This document shows, in pieces, positions 3,063 to 59,802 of a DNA stretch of 64,000 nt; within the stretch, counting starts at the first letter, position 1, and each line of letters starts with the position of its first letter. This DNA is from an uncultured Candidatus Saccharibacteria bacterium (GTDB lineage: Bacteria > Patescibacteriota > Minisyncoccia > Phycocordibacterales > Phycocordibacteraceae). The position numbers and the translations under genes are program-made. The notes below the pieces were generated by a model. It did no database searches and was not told the DNA's origin. It saw only the letters and a list, made by a program, of their open reading frames with translations. The stretch is taken from contig CAYNNZ010000004.1 of the NCBI GenBank assembly GCA_964398815.1, positions 8,074 to 72,073 on the forward strand, given 5' to 3'.

Positions 3063-3086
3063 AACTCCCGTTCGGGAGTTTTTTCT
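3063..3086. terminator. bidirectional intrinsic terminator shared by tRNA-Tyr and tyrS
   Basis: AACTCCC-GTTC-GGGAGTT followed by TTTTTC on plus and preceded by AAGAAAAG (T-rich on minus). Confidence 0.7.
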
Positions 3087-4317
3087 ATTTGAAGCGGACG
3101 AGCAGCTTCTCGGACTTCCCTTTCTGCAGGACCGCGAGGCCGTCATTCAGGTCCGCCTCCCGGAGCGGTCGGTCCTCGGTAATCTGCTCACCATTCAAGC
3201 GAATGCCTTTGCCCTCGATAAGCCGGCGCGCCTCAGACTTTGATGCGACGAAGCCAGCGCCAGTGAGCGCATCGATAATGGACGTCTCAGCGACCACACT
3301 CGCAGAAGGTACGGAGGCGAACAGTGAGTCTCGCTCAGATGCTGAAAGCGAAGTGAAGGGAGCGGCGCCGAAGAGGACATCCGTGAATTTCTCGGCACGC
3401 GATGCCTCTGCCGCACCATGGACGAGCGCCGTGACCTCATCAGCGAGTTTTCGCTGCGCCGTGCGACGTTCAGGATTGCGGCCATGGAGTTCCATGAGCG
3501 CATCTATCTCAAACGGCGGGAGAAAGGTGAAATACTTCAGGTATTTGCCGACGATATCGTCAGGCTGATTTACCCAAAACTGGTAGAACGCAAACGGCGA
3601 GGTCTTCTTGGGGTCGAGCCAGACTGCATTCCCTTCTGACTTACCGAATTTTTTACCAGTTGAGTCCGTTACGAGCGGCGTTGTAAATGCGAATGCCTCC
3701 TTACCTGCCTTGCGTCGAATGAGCTCGACTCCTGAGAGGATATTGGTCCACTGGTCGGACGCACCTATTTGCACGTCACACCCGTATTTCTGATTGAGCA
3801 CGAGATAGTCGTATCCCTGGAGCAGTGAGTAGGCGAATTCAGTGTATGAAATGCTCTCATCGGGTGTTTCAAGGCGACGGCGGATGATATCGCGCTTCAC
3901 GAGCTCGTTCACCGTGAAGTGCTTGCCGATATCACGCAGGAAATCTACCAATTTAATCTTGAGAAGCCAGTCTGCGTTATTCACGAGGGTGACTTTTGCG
4001 CCGATAATGCGCTGCATTTGCTCGCGAAGCGCCTTTGCGTTCTTCGCTATGACACGCGCGTCTGCCAGTTGTCGTTCACCGCTCTCACGAGGATCGCCAA
4101 TCATGCCGGTACCGCCACCAACCAGCAGGATGATGCGATGACCCGCATCCGCAAGGCGCTTCATAGTAAGCACCACCATGAGATGTCCCGCATGCATGGA
4201 GTCCGCAGACGGGTCTACACCCAGATAGACCGTGCGCTTCGTCTCGAAAATCTTTGCAGGCTCTGCCGAGTGATGCTCGACGAGACCTCGGGCTTCCAAG
4301 TCTTTAAGTAAATCCAT
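3085..4317 (-). CDS. tyrS: tyrosyl-tRNA synthetase
   Basis: 410 aa. GVDPSADSMHAGHL (HIGH region), KFGKSEGNAVWL (KMSKS variant), and a C-terminal S4-like KSEARRLIEGKGIRLNGEQI. Confidence 0.95.
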   Translation of the reverse strand: MDLLKDLEARGLVEHHSAEPAKIFETKRTVYLGVDPSADSMHAGHLMVVLTMKRLADAGHRIILLVGGGTGMIGDPRESGERQLADARVIAKNAKALREQMQRIIGAKVTLVNNADWLLKIKLVDFLRDIGKHFTVNELVKRDIIRRRLETPDESISYTEFAYSLLQGYDYLVLNQKYGCDVQIGASDQWTNILSGVELIRRKAGKEAFAFTTPLVTDSTGKKFGKSEGNAVWLDPKKTSPFAFYQFWVNQPDDIVGKYLKYFTFLPPFEIDALMELHGRNPERRTAQRKLADEVTALVHGAAEASRAEKFTDVLFGAAPFTSLSASERDSLFASVPSASVVAETSIIDALTGAGFVASKSEARRLIEGKGIRLNGEQITEDRPLREADLNDGLAVLQKGKSEKLLVRFK

Positions 4318-24323: not shown

Positions 24324-24368
24324 AACTCAATCGTCTTTATCGTTTAGTAAAAATTCGGCGCGTGAGGC

Positions 24369-24408
24369 TCCGTATGGAGGACACGATTGCTCGCATCCTC
24401 CATACGGA
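24369..24408 (-). other. 13-bp stem hairpin in the rpsD-rpoA intergenic spacer
   Basis: TCCGTATGGAGGA - 14 nt - TCCTCCATACGGA (perfect inverted repeat). Confidence 0.5.
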
Positions 24409-24420
24409 ACCCCAATGCGA

Positions 24421-34501: not shown

Positions 34502-34993
34502 TTAGTTTCGTTCGATATACTCTCGCGCCATCTGCGCATATAGGTCTGCCTGCTCCTCGGCAGCACTAATGGTCGCCTGCCACTGTTGGCGATATGGTTC
34601 CGGATTGAGCGGCTTCGCTGCGTTTGGATCATCGAGCGAGTCCATGTTCCTTTTTGCCTCTGCGTACTGCGAATTGCGCGCGAGTGTCCGCTCGCGTACC
34701 GCTTGAAGCGCGACTTCCTGTATGAGCTCTGGATTGCCGGCGAGGAATCCATGCTGTCCCAGTTCCTGCTTTAGTTCCGTCGCCATACGTTCAAGACCGT
34801 TGCGATCATTCGGCAGCCCAGCAATGCCACGATCGACAGCCGCGTCGATTGCTCCTTTGCGTGTAATTCGTTCAAGAATCGTTTCTGGGTCGGTTAGACC
34901 CTTCTCTGCATCCTCGATTTCCTCAGGAGCGAGAGTTCGTTCCTGACCCTCTTCTACAACGTGCACCTTGCGAAACGGCTGTTCTATTCCCAT
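34502..34993 (-). CDS. hypothetical protein (163 aa)
   Basis: Start taken at MGIEQPF (ATG 34993) to avoid a long overlap with ung. Helical and charged. No motif. Confidence 0.55.
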   Translation of the reverse strand: MGIEQPFRKVHVVEEGQERTLAPEEIEDAEKGLTDPETILERITRKGAIDAAVDRGIAGLPNDRNGLERMATELKQELGQHGFLAGNPELIQEVALQAVRERTLARNSQYAEAKRNMDSLDDPNAAKPLNPEPYRQQWQATISAAEEQADLYAQMAREYIERN

Positions 34994-35013: not shown

Positions 35014-35679
35014 TTACTGCCAATCTATCGGGGTTTGGCCGCTCTCTGTTAGATAGGCGTTTGCCTTGCTGAAGGGTTTGCTCCCGAAAAAGCCGTTATA
35101 CGCGGAAAATGGGGACGGGTGCGGAGATTCAATGACGAGGTGTTTGCTGGTATCGATGAGTGATTTCTTTCCACGTGCGTAGTTCCCCCAGAGGATAAAC
35201 ACGAGATGCTCGCGCTCATCTGAGAGTTTCTTGATTACCGCATCGGTAAATCGCTCCCATCCCTGTCCCTGATGCGAGCCTGCGGCGCCTGCGCGCACCG
35301 TAAGCGTCGCGTTTAGTAGAAGCACTCCCTGCTTGGCCCAGCGCGACAAATCCCCTGATTCGTTCGCTGGCTTTCCGGTGTCTGTCGCAATCTCTTTAAA
35401 TATATTCTGGAGCGATGGCGGATTTCGCACACCTTCTGTAACGGAAAACGAAAGACCATGCGCCTGCTTAGGTCCGTGATAGGGGTCCTGGCCCAGTATG
35501 ACGACTTTCACGGCATCGAACGGCGTTAAGTCGAATGCAGCAAAGAGATTTTTCGGGTGCGGATAGACAGTCGCTGTTTCATATTCCTTCTTAACGAATG
35601 CGGCGAGTTCCTTGAAATACGACTCCTCAAATTCGTTTGCAAGATGTTCCCGCCACGAGGTTTCTATTTTCACTTCCAT
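35014..35679 (-). CDS. ung: uracil-DNA glycosylase, family 1
   Basis: 221 aa. [41 protein letters not shown]. Confidence 0.95.
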
Positions 35680-35713
35680 ACAGGAACTATACCAACCACC
35701 AATTAGAGAGACA

Positions 35714-35753
35714 GGAGTGTTAACCTTGCGATATATCGCAAGGTTAACACTCC
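35714..35753. repeat. 40-nt perfect palindrome
   Basis: GGAGTGTTAACCTTGCGATATATCGCAAGGTTAACACTCC equals its own reverse complement. Shares GTTAA-N3-TGCGATATATCGCA-N3-TTAAC with 50327-50362. Confidence 0.95.
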
Positions 35754-35787
35754 GGTTGCGTGAGGTATCTCAATGTCTCAATGAGAG

Positions 35788-36579
35788 TTACTTCTTTACG
35801 ACCTTCATGCCGGCACCATGAAGCAATTTTTTTGCGGCTGTTTCGCGGTAGGGACAGAACTCACATTTCGGACCAGAGGGGGGAATGTCCGAAGAGTCGA
35901 GCGTCTCTTTAATTTTTGGCAGTACGTCATCTATCCAGTCAGCTTTCCCGGTGCTCGGCACCACCGTGACTTCGAACTCCAGCTGCCCGTCGAATGCTTT
36001 CTTATCGGTCGTTGCATTCGCATAGACGAAATATCCGGTATCAGAGACCTTGAATCCGTTATTCCGTAGGAGCCACTGATACACGCCCATCTGGCGCTGA
36101 TACTGCTCATTCCACGATGAGTCCTCGAGCGTGGTGATGGTTCCTGCCTTTGAGGTCGACTTGTAGTCCACGACCATGAGTTCCCCTGCCGGGTTCACCC
36201 AGATGTCGTCCACAGCACCCGAGATAGTGAATCCAGTCGGCTCATGGAAATATTCAACGCCCTCGAAATTTTCCCGCCACGTGTCGATATCCTTATGCTG
36301 ATACGGAACCGCATCGATGCCGTACTGAGTCATGAGTGGATGCGGCGTGCCTGCAGCTCGATGCACATCGAACTCCTTCTTAAAGAGGGCATCTACAGCG
36401 ATGTTGAGAGTGAATGCAGGTCCGCGCGGGCGCCCGGTACCGAGTTTGTTGTCCAAGTAGAAGCAACGCGGACATTCGTTGAATAGCTCGATCTTTGAGC
36501 GCGAGAGGCGCCACTTTGCTCCGCCGTAATTCCAGTCGCTGCTTCTATTTGGGTTGTACTTCTTTACGAAATCGCTCAT
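35788..36579 (-). CDS. PD-(D/E)XK nuclease family protein (Cas4/RecB-like) with 2+2 cysteines
   Basis: 263 aa. N-terminal ECPRCFY, core GAVDDIW...ELMVVDYKST, QMGVYQWLL, C-terminal PKCEFCPY. Confidence 0.75.
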   Translation of the reverse strand: MSDFVKKYNPNRSSDWNYGGAKWRLSRSKIELFNECPRCFYLDNKLGTGRPRGPAFTLNIAVDALFKKEFDVHRAAGTPHPLMTQYGIDAVPYQHKDIDTWRENFEGVEYFHEPTGFTISGAVDDIWVNPAGELMVVDYKSTSKAGTITTLEDSSWNEQYQRQMGVYQWLLRNNGFKVSDTGYFVYANATTDKKAFDGQLEFEVTVVPSTGKADWIDDVLPKIKETLDSSDIPPSGPKCEFCPYRETAAKKLLHGAGMKVVKK

Positions 36580-36582
36580 GCC

Positions 36583-37419
36583 TTAGGCGTAACTATTACA
36601 CAAGGAATTCGCCTCGGCCAATATGCCCCCGATGCGCTCCGGAGATATGGAAATAGCGCGCAACAGGTCGCGATTCTGGCGAACCTGCTCGCAGGTAACT
36701 ACGCCCTGATCTATGAGTAGTCGCTTTTCCGCCTTCTTCAACATAGTGAGCGCAGTAATGGGATAGAGACCGGTCGCTACAATACGGTCATACAGACTTC
36801 CCTCTGACGGATAACTCCAGCCGAGGAGTTGGATACCGGAGCACTTGGCGAATTGGACCGCATCACGCGTGAATTTCGTATTGGTGATGAGGAATCCATG
36901 GTCCACCTTACAGGTCTTGTCCTCTTTCGGGTCGCACTGCCAGATATCGTCGAATCGCGCCTTCACATAGAGTGCGACTTTTACGTCGGTCTTGTAGCCG
37001 GGGTCGTTGTGGTATTTCAGTTCTGCTGCGAGATATTCTCCCTCGCGGTGCGCGTACACGTCCACTTCATGGGTAACGCACTTTCCGGGAATCATGCGCC
37101 GATACTCGACTTCCCATCCCTCTGCTTTGAATAATTCAGAAATGTAATTCTCGAATGGGTGGCCGGAAGGACCGAATTCAAAAAGCGCACGGCGTAGGCT
37201 GTAGCGCGCCGCTGCAGGACGTGCATCATGGCGCAGCATCTGGAATGCGCGCTTGTATATTTCTTGCGTCATCGCGCCGGCTGCAATGGAGCCCTCGATG
37301 GTATGTCGGATGCGCTCTGCAGTGTGCGTTGTCGCGCCCGCGCGGCGTAGCGACCATTCGAGCTTCATCCCGTCGAATGGCTCGACGCTTCCATCGGTCT
37401 TAACAATCTCAACGGACAT
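36583..37419 (-). CDS. ATP-cone domain fused to restriction-endonuclease-like (Mrr-type PD-(D/E)XK) domain
   Basis: 278 aa. N-terminus VKTDGSVEPFDGMKLEWSLRRAG...TQEIYKRAFQML (ATP-cone). Core FENYISELFKAEGWEV...HEVDVYA...YLAAELKY (D...ExK). HGFLITNTKFTRDAVQFA. The start overlaps the mnmA stop (TAATG). Confidence 0.75.
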   Translation of the reverse strand: MSVEIVKTDGSVEPFDGMKLEWSLRRAGATTHTAERIRHTIEGSIAAGAMTQEIYKRAFQMLRHDARPAAARYSLRRALFEFGPSGHPFENYISELFKAEGWEVEYRRMIPGKCVTHEVDVYAHREGEYLAAELKYHNDPGYKTDVKVALYVKARFDDIWQCDPKEDKTCKVDHGFLITNTKFTRDAVQFAKCSGIQLLGWSYPSEGSLYDRIVATGLYPITALTMLKKAEKRLLIDQGVVTCEQVRQNRDLLRAISISPERIGGILAEANSLCNSYA

Positions 37420-39958: not shown

Positions 39959-41320
39959 CTACGTCGGCAGGTTAGACGGCGCTTCGGAGGTCGAGGATTG
40001 TATACGCGGTAGCGACGGCGTTGTGACGCCCGATGATGGGATATGGAATATCGTCGCGAGCTCTTCAGTGTTCATGACCTGCCATGGCATCTTGTACGGC
40101 TCATTGAAGTAGGAACGGCGGCGGTATGAGTCCACCAGTCCATGCGCGGAATGGTGATGATGATGGCCCTTCGGGTCCTCCCATGGCCAGTCATCGAAAT
40201 TGGCAAACCAGCGCGTAATACCGAATGAATTACCCTGCGCGGACGCGATTGGATTCCAAAGTCCGATAAGGTGCGAGACGACGATACCCTGATAGGCATC
40301 CTTCGGTGCGGTGTAAATAGAGCGAATGCCCACATCGAAGAGCGGCTTACTGAGTTTGCGCTCGAGCGCCTCCATCTGATTCATCTGGCCCTTTGTGGGG
40401 TTCGGGAAGCTTTCCGTCTCGAATGTCTTGCCGGTCGCTGGGTCCACATGGGTCTGCTTACGCGTAATTGACTTGCGGATTGCCTCAAGCTCTTCGTTCT
40501 TCTCGTCGAATATCGTGTACTGCTTACCGGAAGAATTCTTCTTGCCGATGTATTTATCATCCTTGGTCACGCGTACGAGGATTTGAATCCAGAATTGCTC
40601 TTTAGGCGAAAGCGAGCCAAGCATTTCGAATATCTGAGCAAGCGGATCGACCTGCTCTTCAGGCTTCGCGAGTGGCGAATCCGGCTTCATGAACTCAGCG
40701 TAGGTGCGAATTGGATAGACATCCTTCGCCGTGAATTTATACTCGCAGCCCCACAAATCCCAATCATGTGCGGTGGGGTCTACCTTGAGGCTGTAGTCTT
40801 CCGCTTCAATGATTTCAACGCCAGGGTACTGCGCATAGATATAGCTCTCGAGACCACGACGGAAGCCGACGCGCGTACGAACGAATAGATGCACGCGTCC
40901 ACCGAGCGAGACGATTTCATAGGACCACGATGGGCGTACCGCACCTATCACGAGACGCTTCCACCACGTGGATTCTCCCGGACGAAGGTGCATGGACGAG
41001 AACACAGCCTCCATCGCGAGTGGCGTCTTGCGGACGTCGCGCGGAATGCGGATTTCGAGCAGGACGTACTCCTGGCGAGCAATGAACGCGAGGCGGTTCG
41101 CAGTCACCCAACGTAGGAATGCGAATTTTCCGAGGACAATCGGGAGCCAGAGCGGCGAGATGACCGCAAGAAATTCAATGTTCCGCCACGTCTGGAGCGG
41201 GTCGAGCGTGAGGAATGCAATATTCGCCGCAATGAAGCAGATAATGAACGGCTGCGCAGAGACGAATATGCCTCGCTGGTGCGCAGCATGCAGGATGTCG
41301 AACCCGCCTCCGGAACTCAT
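39959..41320 (-). CDS. conserved-looking membrane protein of unknown function
   Basis: 453 aa. Three N-terminal TM segments, LLEIRIPRDVRKTPLAMEAVFSSMH block, and a KGHHHHHSAHG histidine run near the C-terminus. Confidence 0.65.
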   Translation of the reverse strand: MSSGGGFDILHAAHQRGIFVSAQPFIICFIAANIAFLTLDPLQTWRNIEFLAVISPLWLPIVLGKFAFLRWVTANRLAFIARQEYVLLEIRIPRDVRKTPLAMEAVFSSMHLRPGESTWWKRLVIGAVRPSWSYEIVSLGGRVHLFVRTRVGFRRGLESYIYAQYPGVEIIEAEDYSLKVDPTAHDWDLWGCEYKFTAKDVYPIRTYAEFMKPDSPLAKPEEQVDPLAQIFEMLGSLSPKEQFWIQILVRVTKDDKYIGKKNSSGKQYTIFDEKNEELEAIRKSITRKQTHVDPATGKTFETESFPNPTKGQMNQMEALERKLSKPLFDVGIRSIYTAPKDAYQGIVVSHLIGLWNPIASAQGNSFGITRWFANFDDWPWEDPKGHHHHHSAHGLVDSYRRRSYFNEPYKMPWQVMNTEELATIFHIPSSGVTTPSLPRIQSSTSEAPSNLPT

Positions 41321-42508: not shown

Positions 42509-45346
42509 TTAGACCACAAGATTGAGGATTCGGCCGGGCACGTAAATGACACGTGAAGGCCTCACTTTACCAAGTGAAGTCTTCACACTGGCAATCTGGA
42601 TGGCCATATCCACTGCATCTGCCTCGGATGCATCCGGAGCGATGGTTATTTCCCCACGTTTCTTGCCGTTTACCTGCACGGTAAGCACCACCTCATCTGC
42701 GACGAGAAGCGACTCATCCGCTGTCGGCCATGCCGCAGCGTGGACACTTCCCTCTTCTCCCAGAGTGCCCCAGAGATGCTCTGTGAGATGCGGAGCAAAC
42801 GGTGCGAGCAAAACCAGAAGGGTACGAACTGCCTGTCGCGGTACCGCTGGCAGTGCTTCGAGGTCGCGCACGAGCACCATGAGCGCAGAGAGGGCGGTAT
42901 TGAATTTAAAGCGGTCGATTTCGCCAGTTACTTTACTCGTCGCCAGTGCGAGTGCGCGTAGTGTTGCTTCGTTCGGCTCGCTGTCGTCTGCCTTACTGGC
43001 GAGTGCATACACGCGATCGAGGAATTTGCGCATCGACAGCGTTCCGTCCAGATTCCATGGGTAGTGACCTGGCTCGTTATATGGACCGATGAATGCGAGG
43101 TACATGCGCACCGCGTCAGCGCCGAATTTCGCCACTACTTCGTCCGGGTTCACGACATTCCCCTTCGACTTACTCATCTTCGCGCCGTCCGTGCCGAGCA
43201 CGATGCCGCGATTGAATCGTTCGGAGAATGGTTCCGACACCGGTGAGAGTGCGAGGTCGTAGAGCACCTTCGTAAAGAACCGTGCATACAGGAGATGCAT
43301 CGTTGTGTGCTCGCTGCCGCCTGAGTAGCGGTCTATCGGCATCCACTTCTTCATGAGCGCAGCGTCGGAGAAATCATGCTCATCCTTCGGGTCGAGATAG
43401 CGGAAGAAATACCAGGATGAGTCTACGAAGGTATCGAGCGTGTCGTATTCCGGTGTCCAGCCTTCGCCGAATATGCGCGTAACGCGCTCCTGGAGTTCTT
43501 TAGAAGACGCGAGCGGGGACTTTCCTTCGCCTGCAGCACCCGGCGTCATGTCGACATCTTCCGGAAGCAACCACGGGAGATGCTCAGATGGGATAGGGTG
43601 CGGATTACCTTCTGGGTCATAGACGACCGGTATCGGACAGCCCCAGTATCGCTGTCGACCAACTGACCAATCGCGTATACGGAACTGCTTCACCCGCTCG
43701 CCTCCGGCGGCCTCAGCGATATCCCAGATGGCTTCGCGGTTTGGCTTTCCGGTAAAGTCTCCGGAATTCGTGAGCAGACCATCGCCAGTGTAATGACCCT
43801 TTCCGAGGAATCGGGCGAGTGCGTACTGATGCTGGTCATCATGTATCTCCTTCACCGCAACCTCCGGCGTTACCCACTCCACGGTGAATTTACCCTTCTC
43901 ATCTTCTTCGAGCTCCTGCTCGCTCTGTGTATCGGATGCGAGCTTGAAATGCAGAATGGTCGTATGCGCGAGCGTTGCTTGATTCTTCGAGAATGCAAAA
44001 TAGGAATGATGGACCTTTTCGTCCGCACGTTCGATGAGCTCTAATTCCTTGTAGCCGGTCTCTTCGCCTATTTCTCGGCTCGCGGTAATTGCTGGGTCTT
44101 CACCCTCATTTACTGTCCCGCCCACGAGCAGGCGCCCACCGAGCTCTTTCGGCCAGTTGATGGTGAGCACTTTACCGTTGTGCTCGACAACGGCGACGAT
44201 TTTCTCCTTATGTTTCGGGTCGACTTGCTCTTCACCGGTAATCGGGTCGATGACGTAGCGAATTGGTAGGTTGTACTTCTTCGCGAACTCATAATCGCGC
44301 TCGTCGTGCGCAGGCACCGCCATAACAGCGCCTGTACCGTATGAGGCAAGTACGTAATCAGCGACATAGACCGGAATGGATTCCTTGGTCGCAGGGTTTG
44401 TTGCAGTGAGGCCATCGAGCACCACACCAGTCTTCTCTTTGTTCTCACTGCGCTCGCGCTCGGTCTTCTTCCCGGTCGCCTTCTGATATGCGCGAACCGC
44501 ATCGACATTGGTCGCGTGCGCAAGAAGCGATTCGAGTGCCGGGTGCTCCGGAGCGAGTACGAGGTAGGTGGCGCCATAGAGGGTGTCAGGACGGGTAGTG
44601 AACACCTGGATATCCGTAGTCTCCGATCCAGTCGCAACCGGGAATGTAATTTTCGCGCCGTCTGACTGCCCTATCCACGCGCGCTGCGCTTCTTTTATCT
44701 CATTCGGCCAGGCGAGCCCGTCGAGGTCAGCAAGGAGACGCTCCGCGTACGCGGTGATTTTGAGGAACCACTGCGTGAGCATCTTGTCTTCGACTTCATG
44801 TCCGCAGCGTTCGCATTTTCCATCCACTACCTGCTCGTTGGCGAGCACCGTCTTATCATTCGGGCACCACTTCACCGATGCGAGCCTGCGCTCTGCGAGT
44901 CCGTGCTCGAGGAACTTCGTGAAGAGCCACTGCGTCCACTTGTAGTAGGAAGGGTCGCAGGTGATGACTTCCTTCGACCAATCCATGGATGCGCCCATCG
45001 TCTCCAGCTGGCGACGCATGTTCGCCATGTTGTCGTAGGTCCATTTCTTCGGGTCGAGACCACGCTTTATCGCCGCATTCTCAGCCGGCAGCCCGAACGC
45101 GTCGAATCCCATCGGGAAGAGTACGTTCTTCCCTGCCATGCGCAGTTTGCGGGCGTAGATGTCCGTAAGTGCGAACGCATACCAGTGCCCGATATGCAGA
45201 TCTCCTGATGGATACGGAAATTCAAAGAGGAGGTAGTACTTCTCTTTGGTCTCATCCGTGAGGTCGGTCTCGTACAGATTGAGGCCTGCCCACTTTTGGC
45301 GGGCTGCCTGTTCTATCTCTACGTGATTGAACGACTCTCGCGCCAT
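42509..45346 (-). CDS. leuS: leucyl-tRNA synthetase with an inserted Nudix hydrolase domain
   Basis: 945 aa. PSGDLHIGHWY (HIGH), TTRPDTLYGATY and GTGAVMAVPAHDERD (CP1 editing), KMSKSKGN. Residues about 378-515 carry a perfect Nudix box GTVNEGEDPAITASREIGEETGY. Confidence 0.96.
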   Translation of the reverse strand: MARESFNHVEIEQAARQKWAGLNLYETDLTDETKEKYYLLFEFPYPSGDLHIGHWYAFALTDIYARKLRMAGKNVLFPMGFDAFGLPAENAAIKRGLDPKKWTYDNMANMRRQLETMGASMDWSKEVITCDPSYYKWTQWLFTKFLEHGLAERRLASVKWCPNDKTVLANEQVVDGKCERCGHEVEDKMLTQWFLKITAYAERLLADLDGLAWPNEIKEAQRAWIGQSDGAKITFPVATGSETTDIQVFTTRPDTLYGATYLVLAPEHPALESLLAHATNVDAVRAYQKATGKKTERERSENKEKTGVVLDGLTATNPATKESIPVYVADYVLASYGTGAVMAVPAHDERDYEFAKKYNLPIRYVIDPITGEEQVDPKHKEKIVAVVEHNGKVLTINWPKELGGRLLVGGTVNEGEDPAITASREIGEETGYKELELIERADEKVHHSYFAFSKNQATLAHTTILHFKLASDTQSEQELEEDEKGKFTVEWVTPEVAVKEIHDDQHQYALARFLGKGHYTGDGLLTNSGDFTGKPNREAIWDIAEAAGGERVKQFRIRDWSVGRQRYWGCPIPVVYDPEGNPHPIPSEHLPWLLPEDVDMTPGAAGEGKSPLASSKELQERVTRIFGEGWTPEYDTLDTFVDSSWYFFRYLDPKDEHDFSDAALMKKWMPIDRYSGGSEHTTMHLLYARFFTKVLYDLALSPVSEPFSERFNRGIVLGTDGAKMSKSKGNVVNPDEVVAKFGADAVRMYLAFIGPYNEPGHYPWNLDGTLSMRKFLDRVYALASKADDSEPNEATLRALALATSKVTGEIDRFKFNTALSALMVLVRDLEALPAVPRQAVRTLLVLLAPFAPHLTEHLWGTLGEEGSVHAAAWPTADESLLVADEVVLTVQVNGKKRGEITIAPDASEADAVDMAIQIASVKTSLGKVRPSRVIYVPGRILNLVV

Positions 45347-49109: not shown

Positions 49110-49508
49110 ATGACTAAGAACATTCCGTTCAAATTCACCGTTGCGTTCACCTTCCTCTTGGGCTTCGGCTTGCTTGCCTTCGCCTGCTTCCTGCAGTGGG
49201 ACATCACGGACTACCCGAATAGGGTCTATATGTCCGAGATGATCGCCCGCGGCTGGTCCGCCACTGCCGGCGCCCTGCCGGCCTCGACGACTGCCCGCTT
49301 CCCCATGCTCGGCGACGGGTATCTGGGCGTCTGCGCCCCGATCGTCTTCGCCATCATGGGCTTCGCCATGCTGGTGCTCGGCTGGCATCTCCTCGATGCC
49401 GTCCATAAGGACGACGAGGAAGAGCCGGAAGAGCCGGCGCGTGAGCCCGTGGCGACGGACGACAACGTCCGCCACATGGGTGAAGGCGCCCGCGACATCG
49501 CGGCCTAG
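49110..49508 (+). CDS. hypothetical membrane protein (132 aa)
   Basis: Two to three hydrophobic segments and an acidic C-terminal tail. Own promoter, SD and terminator. Confidence 0.5.
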   Translation: MTKNIPFKFTVAFTFLLGFGLLAFACFLQWDITDYPNRVYMSEMIARGWSATAGALPASTTARFPMLGDGYLGVCAPIVFAIMGFAMLVLGWHLLDAVHKDDEEEPEEPAREPVATDDNVRHMGEGARDIAA

Positions 49509-49687: not shown

Positions 49688-50269
49688 CTACTTAGCTGCG
49701 CGCGCAAGCGACGCAATGGCCTTCAGATAGCGTGCTTTGCGTGCTGGGGTGCAACTCTCTGAATTTCCAAACTGCGTAAGGCTCACCTTATAGCCAGACA
49801 TACCAAGAGTGGCGTAGGAGATTTCGTTCGTGAAGTCACCGAATACGAGACGTATGAAAATTGGCGGCATCTTGGAAAGCGTAATGACTCGCGCCGTCTT
49901 CCCCGTCATCATGCGGTCCCATCCCATACCGTTCTTCCAGAAATGGAACGCAAAGCTGGGAAGCCAGATACGGTCAAAGAATCCCTTGAGTAGCGCAGGC
50001 ATTGCCGACCACCAGACTGGATACAGGAGCACGAAGTGGTCCGCCCACTTCATATCCTCCTGCACTTTCTTCAGGTCCGGCTCGAGTTCTTGAATTACCT
50101 TGTAGCCCTTGTGGAGAATGGGGTCGAACGAAAGGTCCCCGATATTCGCACGTCGCACGTAGTGGCCAGCATCGGCGGCCGCCTTTTCGTATGCATCGGC
50201 AAGTTCGTTCGTAAGTGTACCGTCCTTATCGGGATTACCCATCAGGATATAGATGTTCTTCTGCTTCAT
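49688..50269 (-). CDS. flavodoxin-like fold NAD(P)H dehydrogenase (quinone)-type protein
   Basis: 193 aa. IYILMGNPDKD, ADHFVLLYPVWWSAMPALLKGFFDR. Confidence 0.8.
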   Translation of the reverse strand: MKQKNIYILMGNPDKDGTLTNELADAYEKAAADAGHYVRRANIGDLSFDPILHKGYKVIQELEPDLKKVQEDMKWADHFVLLYPVWWSAMPALLKGFFDRIWLPSFAFHFWKNGMGWDRMMTGKTARVITLSKMPPIFIRLVFGDFTNEISYATLGMSGYKVSLTQFGNSESCTPARKARYLKAIASLARAAK

Positions 50270-50326
50270 GCCGTAACTTTATCATGCGACCACCCCCATC
50301 TCCGTGTCGACTTTAGGGCGACTGGA

Positions 50327-50362
50327 AAAGTTAATAGTGCGATATATCGCACTATTAACTTT
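50327..50362. repeat. 36-nt perfect palindrome
   Basis: AAAGTTAATAGTGCGATATATCGCACTATTAACTTT equals its own reverse complement. Same core and GTTAA/TTAAC flanks as 35714-35753. Confidence 0.95.
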
Positions 50363-50403
50363 CTGTGTTGGTGGTGCCATCTATCGCAAGCCGTAGCGAA
50401 GAC

Positions 50404-50637
50404 CTATTTCTGCATTAAAGCCGCGAGTTCACTGCGGTATTTTTTCATTACTTCCATCGTCGCCTTCATCTGTGGCTCGCCTCCCTTTTTGACGCGGCGA
50501 TCCACCTCTTCGCCAATCTTCTTAAACAGTTCCGGGTCCTTCGTCACAAGCGCCATAATCTGCTCGCGCTGCGCCTCCGGCACGTCTTTCATTTTCGCCT
50601 TCATCATCTGGCGCAGGAAAAAATCTTGTACTCCCAT
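50404..50637 (-). CDS. hypothetical small helical protein (77 aa)
   Basis: Lys/Glu-rich helical sequence. No motif. Confidence 0.5.
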   Translation of the reverse strand: MGVQDFFLRQMMKAKMKDVPEAQREQIMALVTKDPELFKKIGEEVDRRVKKGGEPQMKATMEVMKKYRSELAALMQK

Positions 50638-58740: not shown

Positions 58741-59802
58741 ATGCCGGGCCCCCAAAGGACCTTAATGCCCCATACGTTTGGGCCTCAAAAGAAAAAACCG
58801 AGCTCGCAAGTTCGGAAAGCTTTGGTGTCTACCGGACCGGTTGTACTCTCCACGCTCGTGATGGCAATCGCGCTCTTCTCGCTTCCTTCTATTCTTTCGT
58901 TCGACCTACGCGCCGATGAGTTATCGCAGCGTGCGAAGGCGCCATTCCCCGTATCGGTCGACCCTGCACGCAAAGTCATTGTCGAGAGTCCTACTGCTGA
59001 CGCACTGCTGCGCGAGGGTACAAACCCCGCCCTTTCTGCAGCTGCTACACAGGCGAGTACCTTCATCGCATGGCTCGCCTCGAAGATTGCTGACTTCCCT
59101 GTCTATCGCCTGCTTGCAGGTGCGGACGTGAATTTCGTGACCATCCAGCCAGGGTACCGACAGGAACAGGTTGCTTCTGCGTTCGCGAGCAGTCTCGGCT
59201 GGAGTGTGAAGGAGCGCCAGGCATTCCTTGCAAACGTAAAATCGACGCCACCAACGCTTTCCGAAGGAGAGTTCGTGCCGGGCACGTATGAGGTGCATGG
59301 AGCAATGACGCCTACGGAGGTGCAGAACATGCTGAACGACCGCTTTACCGCGGAAATATTGAATCGCTACAGCACCACGACTTCAGAACAGGTTCCGCTC
59401 ATGGATGCGCTCACCATCGCTTCGCTCATCGAGCGCGAGACTGGCGGCACCGACGATATGCGTATGATTTCCGGAATTATCTGGAATCGTCTCTTTGTGA
59501 ATATGAACCTGCAGATTGATGCGACGCTGCAGTATGCGAAGTCCGCAAATACCAAATCATGGTGGCCACCCGTGAAGCCAGCCGATAAATACATAAAGTC
59601 CGCATATAACACCTATGCGCATCCGGGCCTCCCGCCAGGACCTATTGCGAGCCCTTCAGTTGCTGCGGTTATCGCTGCACTCAATCCGAAGCCGACGGAC
59701 TGCATCTTCTATTTCCATGACAAGTATGGAAACTTCCACTGCTCCGAGAATTACTCCGAGCACGTGAAGTCACTTAAAAAGTATTACGGTCAGGGGAAAT
59801 AA
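58741..59802 (+). CDS. MltG/YceG-like endolytic transglycosylase, second paralog
   Basis: SLIERETG, SAYNTYAHPGLPPGPIASPS, CIFYFH. ATG 58741 is preferred (the track start at 58735 is TTG). TGTTAAAAT extended -10 ends 6 nt upstream. Confidence 0.85.
   Translation: MPGPQRTLMPHTFGPQKKKPSSQVRKALVSTGPVVLSTLVMAIALFSLPSILSFDLRADELSQRAKAPFPVSVDPARKVIVESPTADALLREGTNPALSAAATQASTFIAWLASKIADFPVYRLLAGADVNFVTIQPGYRQEQVASAFASSLGWSVKERQAFLANVKSTPPTLSEGEFVPGTYEVHGAMTPTEVQNMLNDRFTAEILNRYSTTTSEQVPLMDALTIASLIERETGGTDDMRMISGIIWNRLFVNMNLQIDATLQYAKSANTKSWWPPVKPADKYIKSAYNTYAHPGLPPGPIASPSVAAVIAALNPKPTDCIFYFHDKYGNFHCSENYSEHVKSLKKYYGQGK

Follow-up and report, generated by a model that had tools for sequence, protein, structure and literature searches.

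The stretch of DNA analysed here (64,000 nt, hereafter the window) carries two long spacerless palindromes, site 1 and site 2, that are probably operators of a small dimeric helix-turn-helix (HTH) protein of the Trp-repressor family, belonging to a YerC/HisR-like subfamily widespread in Patescibacteria (the candidate phyla radiation, CPR). In related genomes the gene for such a protein is bracketed by palindromes with the same centre, and the sequence of these sites changes in step with the predicted recognition helix of the protein; it is this bracketing, together with the co-variation of site and helix, that makes operators the best explanation for the two palindromes. Among the readings offered in a preliminary description of site 1, the evidence thus strongly favours the operator of a dimeric DNA-binding protein.

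As the preliminary description had stated, site 1 is exactly self-complementary over two 20-nt arms that meet without a spacer, and the 36-nt palindrome at site 2 shares its core, its flanks and their spacing [Table 1]. If one mismatch is admitted, the symmetry at site 1 reaches positions 35711-35756 (46 nt). As its operator core we predict CCTTGCGATATATCGCAAGG, and the inner 24 nt of site 2 read AATAGTGCGATATATCGCACTATT. The pattern common to both, GTTAA-N3-TGCGATATATCGCA-N3-TTAAC (GTTAANNNTGCGATATATCGCANNNTTAAC), matches the window twice, a number that does not change when three mismatches are allowed, and is absent from 100 dinucleotide-preserving shuffles of the window. Besides 7 nt per arm, the two sites have the GTTAA of arm positions 11-15 in common; in the N3 stretch and the outer arms their bases are different, yet complementary within each site. 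Sites 1 and 2 rank first and third by arm length among the inverted repeats of the window, which holds no further occurrence of the GATATATC centre. Since the flanks beyond the two palindromes are unrelated to each other, the sites are not parts of a larger duplicated segment, a circumstance that the preliminary description had named as telling against a specific element. At a distance of 37 bp, measured from the site 2 centre, lies a degenerate core, TGCCATCTATCGCA, with two mismatches. Matches this degenerate are expected 0.31 times in the whole window, and it may represent a second, weak site; tandem arrangements with a spacing of 41-103 bp are common beside the regulator genes of relatives. 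We also note that the outer blocks of site 1 (35719-35724 and 35743-35748) are themselves GTTAAC palindromes, each centred 12 bp from the main centre, where site 2 carries GTTAAT/ATTAAC. The trp operator of E. coli has GTTAAC at its centre.

The link to a Trp-repressor-like protein emerged from a scan of 185,579 species genomes, a collection that does not include the source genome, with the query TTAANNNTGCGATATATCGCA. The 13 matches compare with about 17 expected by chance, and a single one, in a patescibacterial metagenome-assembled genome (MAG; locus L023), was informative. Two cores 456 bp apart, each within a longer perfect palindrome and with different outer arms, there flank a 132-aa open reading frame (ORF) of the Trp_repressor family (PF01371, E=8e-11; 42.3 bits vs a cut-off of 27). 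Homologs of this protein at 79%, 62% and 49% identity likewise have a GATATATC-centred perfect palindrome upstream of their genes and another just past the stop codon, such that all four diverged homologs have their gene framed by perfect palindromes with GATATATC at the centre. The bases at arm positions 5-7 are specific to each genome (TGCGAT, TACGAT or TATGAT), and the outer arms vary freely yet remain complementary. A metagenome scan with the protein alignment then confirmed at least 490 relatives and provided 80 loci (677 kb) for analysis; all 130 listed homologs carry PF01371, and the proteins of relatives are 130-150 aa long. Perfect zero-spacer palindromes with arms of at least 8 nt number 173 in these loci, and 128 of them are no more than about 250 nt away from the regulator gene, a zone that makes up roughly 6% of the DNA: 63 are found in the 200 nt ahead of the gene and 65 in the 250 nt that follow it, compared with 40 in the other ~94% of the DNA. 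Counted by distinct regulator proteins, a perfect palindrome is found upstream in 50 of 69 and downstream in 50 of 66; when the cognate 16-mer is searched for with at most two mismatches, a site is found within 250 nt upstream in 55 of 58 loci and just past the stop codon in 53 of 57. A chance origin of the palindromes is excluded by this clustering and by the shuffles of the window.

Upstream centres lie mostly 10-60 nt before the ATG and downstream centres mostly 2-60 nt past the stop codon. At P0052-type loci the right arm of the upstream site overlaps the ATG (CTAT followed by G), so that its ATATAT centre falls at -12 to -7, and the stop codon TAG lies within the left arm of the downstream site. 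The upstream and downstream sites of one locus have on average 9.9 nt per arm in common, corresponding to a palindromic motif of ~20 bp. Dispersed cognate copies in relatives are intergenic and occur about once per 90 kb, as compared with two in the 64 kb of the window.

By sequence, the protein profile is closest to the YerC/HisR-type structures 3FRW, 3KOR and 3G1C (E 1e-8 to 2e-7). An AlphaFold (AF2) model, with a predicted local distance difference test score of 85-95 over the HTH core, returns TrpR or TrpR-like proteins as all of its top 30 PDB matches, such that the regulator is predicted to adopt the TrpR fold. The proteins carry a C-terminal extension of 30-50 aa, often with an RGKGRW-like motif; the idea that this motif reads the ATATAT centre is not borne out, as L111-type proteins lack it and have the same centre. 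The gene is syntenic with RRF and RseP genes (RRF-RseP-regulator) in one lineage and with htpX, lemA and groEL (regulator-htpX-lemA-groEL) in another. In the latter, a Kaiserbacteria-like lineage (L113, L123, L134, L135, L137), the neighbours comprise htpX (M48), lemA, groEL and groES, an arrangement that hints at a stress-related role of the regulator; immediately ahead of groES, no cognate palindrome was found in L113, L134 or L135. In two other loci (L125:859-900 and L128:606-649) a perfect palindrome of 42-44 nt, ATATATCGCTAGCTCGTCCGG joined to CCGGACGAGCTAGCGATATAT, with the half-site GCGATATAT everted at its outer ends, is found near an intein-containing ribonucleotide reductase gene.

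Comparison across loci shows that the sites co-vary with the residues at which the predicted recognition helix begins. TACGAT sites (TACGATATATCGTA) go with the helix V/I-S-P-S-T in 22 of 22 loci; nGCGAT sites are paired with S, I, T, V or G at the Pro position and never with P. A helix beginning x-Q-T accompanies TATGATATATCATA (6/6 loci), Gln at the start of the recognition helix pairing with TGATATATCA, and helices beginning x-G-T and x-P-T accompany GATTCGAATC and GATTTAAATC, respectively (4/4 loci each). The exchange of Pro for a non-Pro residue (Ser/Pro) together with A for non-A at base ±6 recurs in the pairs L071/L102 (84% identity), L050/L040 (70%) and L023/L027 (61%), giving at least three independent switches within close pairs. 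Given that the switches recur and that proteins of one specificity may be as little as 33% identical, the correlation does not merely reflect shared ancestry. The recognition rule that we propose from these alignments would relate helix position 3 to base ±6 and helix position 4 to base ±5.

Several lines of evidence connect the regulators of relatives to the window. The exact core TGCGATATATCGCA flanks the regulator genes of L023, L030, L037, L046, L071, L111, L123-L132 and L137. The inner part of site 2, AATAGTGCGATATATCGCACTATT, matches base for base the site that closely follows the L111 regulator gene and is contained in the 26-nt second downstream site of L123-L132, L111 and L123-L132 being Kaiserbacteria-like loci. 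In a relative of about 93% nucleotide identity (L138-L141), site 1 is present at the orthologous position as a perfect 46-nt palindrome that differs from the window copy by one mismatch, at arm position 21. The 74 nt that run from the palindrome to the ATG of the uracil-DNA glycosylase (UDG) gene contain no substitution vs 4.9 expected, the relative being 6.6% diverged (P~0.008). The search for further copies and for conservation in relatives that the preliminary description proposed has thus yielded copies across lineages and a conserved site 1. If the palindromes are operators, the source genome is expected to hold a PF01371 gene flanked by nnTGCGATATATCGCAnn palindromes and encoding the helix V-S-[S/I/V]-S-T.

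A number of candidates for the regulator of the window organism were considered. The 132-aa ORF at 49110-49508, beside site 2, has the length of the L023 protein; it shows no similarity to it, is membrane-protein-like and was rejected. P0085 (L134) fits by GC content and was dismissed on account of its different core, and P0059 and P0052 were set aside because their organisms are from groundwater at Hainich and Rifle. P0040 (L137) shares the core of the window and could not be linked to the window MAG. Short-read contigs (Logan and other) often start or end in or beside the palindromes (L003, L113-L122, L032), those of L006, L007, L009, L011 and L012 start inside site 2, and it is common for a regulator gene to be no more than a few hundred nt away from a contig end. 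The palindromes break assemblies, so that the regulator tends towards contig ends and may be under-represented in, or missed from, MAGs.

Table 1. Positions of the palindromes, the adjoining genes and the predicted promoter elements in the window
Feature	Position	Strand	Description
Site 1	35714..35753	none	GGAGTGTTAACCTTGCGATATATCGCAAGGTTAACACTCC; perfect 40-nt palindrome, arms 20 nt, spacer 0
14-nt core of site 1	35727..35740	none	TGCGATATATCGCA
Site 2	50327..50362	none	AAAGTTAATAGTGCGATATATCGCACTATTAACTTT; perfect 36-nt palindrome
14-nt core of site 2	50338..50351	none	TGCGATATATCGCA
Degenerate auxiliary core	50375..50388	none	TGCCATCTATCGCA; candidate weak second site
PD-(D/E)XK nuclease gene, upstream of site 1	35788..36579	-	PF12705, E=7e-16
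UDG-superfamily gene, downstream of site 1, presumed target	35014..35679	-	PF03167, E=3e-17
Extended -10 box of UDG gene	35686..35694	-	TGGTATAGT, then 6 nt, then ATG; predicted leaderless promoter
77-aa ORF, upstream of site 2	50404..50637	-	67 aa in metagenome records
Flavodoxin_2 / FMN_red gene, downstream of site 2, presumed target	49688..50269	-	PF02525, E=5e-28
Extended -10 box of flavodoxin-fold gene	50276..50284	-	TGATAAAGT, then 6 nt, then ATG; predicted leaderless promoter

The window is of a Patescibacteria/Parcubacteria type, its cluster mates being annotated as Patescibacteria or Parcubacteria, and nearly all of its genes lie on the minus strand. A phage origin, suggested by this one-strand gene order, was rejected in view of the cellular genes present (an F-type ATP synthase operon, a leucyl-tRNA synthetase, M16 peptidases, DUF5671) and of the lack of any meaningful match in the phage collection searched. 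In agreement with the preliminary description, both palindromes lie shortly after a minus-strand stop codon and ahead of the next gene: the nuclease gene ends 34 nt before site 1 and the 77-aa ORF 41 nt before site 2, and the far ends of the palindromes are separated by 34 and 57 nt from the ATG of the UDG gene and that of the flavodoxin-fold gene, respectively. The placement of site 1 between a Cas4-like nuclease gene and ung holds for the UDG-superfamily gene, whose orthologs across Parcubacteria share 74-95% identity, and not for the nuclease, which matches PF12705 and scores 20.5 bits against the Cas_Cas4 model, under its cut-off of 22.7. The 77-aa ORF has no family match. The flavodoxin-fold product is named putative NADPH-quinone reductase in one source.

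The layout of both presumed target genes is that expected of leaderless transcripts. In the window, TAnnnT followed by 5-7 nt precedes 12 of 68 first ATGs vs 0.5% of internal ATGs, and the extended form TGnTAnnnT precedes 7 of 68 first ATGs and none of 549 internal ones, in an ORF set that was chosen greedily and whose listed ORFs do not comprise the gene at 49688-50269. Other genes with the extended -10 box are found at 3085-4317(-), 34502-34993(-), 36583-37419(-), 39959-41320(-) and 58741-59802(+), and Shine-Dalgarno-like motifs are not enriched at the gene starts of the window. Judging from these motifs, this Patescibacterium appears to use leaderless mRNAs widely. The position of the ATATAT centre in P0052-type loci fits the same extended -10 geometry. 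The centres of sites 1 and 2 (35733.5 and 50344.5) lie at -54.5 and -75.5 relative to the start codons of the UDG and flavodoxin-fold genes; given the leaderless layout at both genes, these are also their approximate distances from the predicted transcription start sites. The two distances differ by 21 bp, which places both sites on the same face of the helix.

The operator interpretation can be cast in the following terms. Like TrpR and HisR, a dimer would place one HTH on each half-site of the central ~20 bp. The copy ahead of the regulator gene spans the -10/start region, so that the protein would repress itself. In the window, the bound protein would lie upstream of the leaderless promoters and would modulate the UDG gene and the quinone-reductase-like gene; alternatively, it could block read-through from the gene just upstream. 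Symmetry beyond ~20 bp may be a secondary property of the DNA (a cruciform-prone, easily melted AT centre) or a product of template-switch "palindrome perfection".

A number of observations weigh against this interpretation. Perfect palindromy continues past the point at which same-locus sites diverge, over 239 positions vs about 28 expected, and a simple dimer-operator model neither requires nor predicts symmetry beyond the conserved motif. Several dispersed copies, like the copies past the stop codon of the regulator, fall between convergent genes, a place in which no promoter is expected, and regulation of promoters therefore cannot be the whole story. The genes neighbouring the dispersed sites show no functional theme, and the spacing of upstream and downstream sites, taken as a test for looping, shows no helical phasing. 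The co-variation of site and helix is partly confounded by shared ancestry. Finally, tblastn finds no TrpR-like homolog within the 64-kb window, and the assignment of the regulator to the window genome rests on motif identity with relatives.

The same observations have to be set against other explanations, one of which is that the palindromes function chiefly at the level of RNA, where their hairpins would be unconventional terminators, sites of RNase III cleavage or other processing, or transcript-end stabilisers, the association with the TrpR-like gene being secondary. Folded as RNA, sites 1 and 2 would form hairpins of -32.6 and -22.2 kcal/mol (z about -9.5) at 34-41 nt past stop codons, many members of the family lie 0-20 nt past the regulator stop codon or between convergent genes, and the outer arms vary while staying complementary. 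We nevertheless regard this explanation as very unlikely. A T-rich tail follows only 4 of 52 downstream palindromes, and the window genome has some 15 ordinary minus-strand terminators with a GC-rich stem and a T-tract that are unlike the palindromes. Upstream copies occur beside divergent neighbours (L123), so that there is no transcript to terminate. Moreover, the would-be loop is itself palindromic and invariant, arm positions 5-7 track the recognition helix of the protein, and the arms are strictly Watson-Crick, with only nine internal mismatches (3/3/3) and no G.U bias in what is a very small sample. A canonical intrinsic terminator was also rejected for either site, the consensus scan skipping both palindromes, whose centre and arms are AT-rich, and calling others nearby; together with the scarcity of T-rich tails, this bears out the view of the preliminary description that the palindromes are not ordinary intrinsic terminators. 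Its more specific remark that neither has a T-tract applies to site 1 and less well to site 2, where the arm ends in TTT with one more T, a weak tract. No family was found in Rfam 15, which returned only generic miRNA-precursor hairpin matches (15-24 bits vs cut-offs of 56-113). The absence of an Rfam family, the lack of G.U tolerance and a symmetric centre that tracks the protein helix tell against the processing element that the preliminary description had also entertained. The centre of the sites is always AT-rich and itself palindromic, which, with the Watson-Crick-only arms, points to a cause at the level of DNA rather than RNA pairing; cruciform-prone sites or the template-switch perfection of quasi-palindromes may provide it.

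The presence of copies between convergent genes and past the regulator stop codon leaves room for a roadblock, insulator or architectural role. It could be that the same protein binds the sites and that its main role is of this kind, as a roadblock or insulator or in organising the chromosome in the manner of parS, matS or Ter, with the symmetry perhaps serving cruciform extrusion. The sites found between convergent genes (comEC/sodA, RNase J/HAD, regulator/htpX), the presence of sites at either end of the regulator gene in about 95% of loci, the low copy number of about one per 30-90 kb, and the length and perfection of the palindromes, whose AT centre is easily melted, would all suit such a role, as would the fact that both window sites separate co-directional genes with no canonical terminator between them. 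The protein has a plain TrpR fold, however, and domains of the ParB/CTPase, SMC-loading or Tus/RTP type are absent from it; the upstream site coincides exactly with the start/-10 region of the regulator gene, in the classic layout of an autorepressor, and upstream and downstream sites are spaced without phasing; we consider a mainly architectural role distinctly unlikely. A broader proposal, which we put forward tentatively and hold to be improbable, is that the sites stay long and perfectly symmetric because their function goes beyond that of duplex operators, for example as supercoiling-sensitive cruciform/operator switches, or as roadblock insulators delimiting transcription units in genomes poor in transcription factors. 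They would belong to an apparently undescribed CPR-wide architecture in which the regulator gene is enclosed from start to stop by its own operators and a genome has a few dozen sites.

A gene flanked on both sides by dispersed palindrome copies also recalls mobile repeats, more particularly repetitive extragenic palindromic (REP) sequences and their hairpin-forming doublets (REPINs) with the REP-associated tyrosine transposase (RAYT), or miniature inverted-repeat transposable elements (MITEs). The copies are intergenic and assemblies often break at them, as would be the case for a miniature palindromic repeat family with a RAYT-like flanked gene. Against this stand the low copy number (two in 64 kb here and about one per 90 kb elsewhere), the restriction of the sequence common to the sites of one genome to the central 20-24 bp with differing outer arms, and a 130-150-aa HTH protein with no HUH/Y1 or other catalytic domain. 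The regulator is in conserved synteny, site 1 occupies the orthologous position in the 93%-identical relative, and no target-site duplications were seen by eye at the two window sites, no systematic search having been made. Such an origin is exceedingly improbable, and on the grounds of copy number, common sequence and conserved position the miniature-repeat reading of the preliminary description is unsupported, as is its suggestion of a recombination or nicking site, no recombinase or nuclease being consistently associated with the palindromes.

The operators of TrpR and HisR (YerC) are palindromes of ~20 bp, with a site often located before the regulator's own gene (PMC9413887). The regulators described here resemble these proteins (PF01371) in being small TrpR-fold HTH proteins with a ~20-bp palindrome of lineage-specific consensus and a site before their own gene. 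The consensus of the sites, nnTRYGATATATCRYAnn, differs from that of TrpR (TGTAcTnGTnnACnAgTACA) and that of HisR (cacTTTAnnnnnnTAAAgtg) (both PMC9413887), and on the basis of these motifs the CPR sites are assigned to a specificity class different from either. Here the centre is most conserved rather than the outer half-sites, the proteins have a C-terminal extension, a second site is present at the stop codon in about 93% of CPR loci, and the palindromes are perfect over 26-46 nt. No Trp or His genes lie next to any site examined, the neighbours in the window being the UDG and quinone-reductase-like genes.

Other known palindromic systems resemble the present one in part. The controlling inverted repeat of chaperone expression (CIRCE) combines perfect inverted symmetry with the function of a repressor operator, and it can fold into an mRNA hairpin as well. 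The resemblance lies in the inverted-repeat operator and in the regulator of one lineage being located beside htpX-lemA-groEL-groES; CIRCE, however, differs in sequence (TTAGCACTC-N9-GAGTGCTAA) and in that its arms stand 9 nt apart, and its binding protein, HrcA, does not have the TrpR fold. A similarity of the outer arms of site 1, GAGTGTTAA, to the arms of CIRCE is treated as coincidence, the order of the arms being everted and site 2 showing no such likeness. REP/RAYT (REPIN) systems share with the present one a gene flanked on both sides by dispersed extragenic palindromes and differ from it in that there is no tyrosine-transposase (HUH) domain here, that the copies number tens and not hundreds, that the outer arms are unconserved and that positions are syntenic. 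parS/ParB, matS/MatP and Ter/RTP involve few (near-)perfect palindromes in each genome, some of them next to the gene that encodes the protein binding them, and RTP autoregulates via adjacent sites. The small number of palindromes and the binding-protein gene adjoining some of them are common to these systems and ours, whereas the fold of the protein is different and it has no partner ATPase/CTPase domain. The NrdR box is a 16-bp palindrome (acaCwAtATaTwGtgt), usually in tandem, upstream of ribonucleotide reductase genes. It was rejected as an identity for the sites, which have only the ATATAT centre in common with it, differ in the flanking bases and the downstream genes, and track the TrpR-like protein.

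Full-text literature searches returned no paper with the motif or with a CPR TrpR-like regulon. We found no published description of the pairing of regulator and palindrome, which is new relative to the known TrpR/HisR pairs in its consensus, its bracketing of the gene and its long symmetry. Patescibacteria/CPR make up a large share of bacterial diversity, and the regulation of their tiny genomes is almost uncharted. The predicted regulator-operator pair is recognisable in hundreds of uncultured lineages, offers a first proposed residue-to-base recognition rule open to mutagenesis, and has the UDG and NADPH-quinone-reductase-like genes as candidate targets. It also raises the structural questions of why the operators should be perfect over 26-46 nt and why they should stand on both sides of the regulator gene. 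If the operator interpretation is correct, changing the centre from GATATATC to GACATGTC would abolish binding of the regulator.

Other features of the window were noted in passing. The gene at 36583-37419(-), which belongs to the same run of genes as those for the PD-(D/E)XK nuclease and the UDG and is itself kept in the 93% relative, encodes a 278-aa protein with an N-terminal ATP-cone and an Mrr_cat / AF1548-like restriction-endonuclease-type domain; from its domains, the product looks like an unusual nucleotide-sensing nuclease fusion. An imperfect inverted repeat at 24363-24414, with 24-nt arms that are 83% complementary around a 4-nt loop (TGAGGCTCCGTATGGAGGACACGA / TCGCATCCTCCATACGGAACCCCA), sits in an intergenic gap and is unrelated to the palindrome family. 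The leucyl-tRNA synthetase (42509-45346(-), 945 aa) has a NUDIX-domain match within the synthetase (Pfam).

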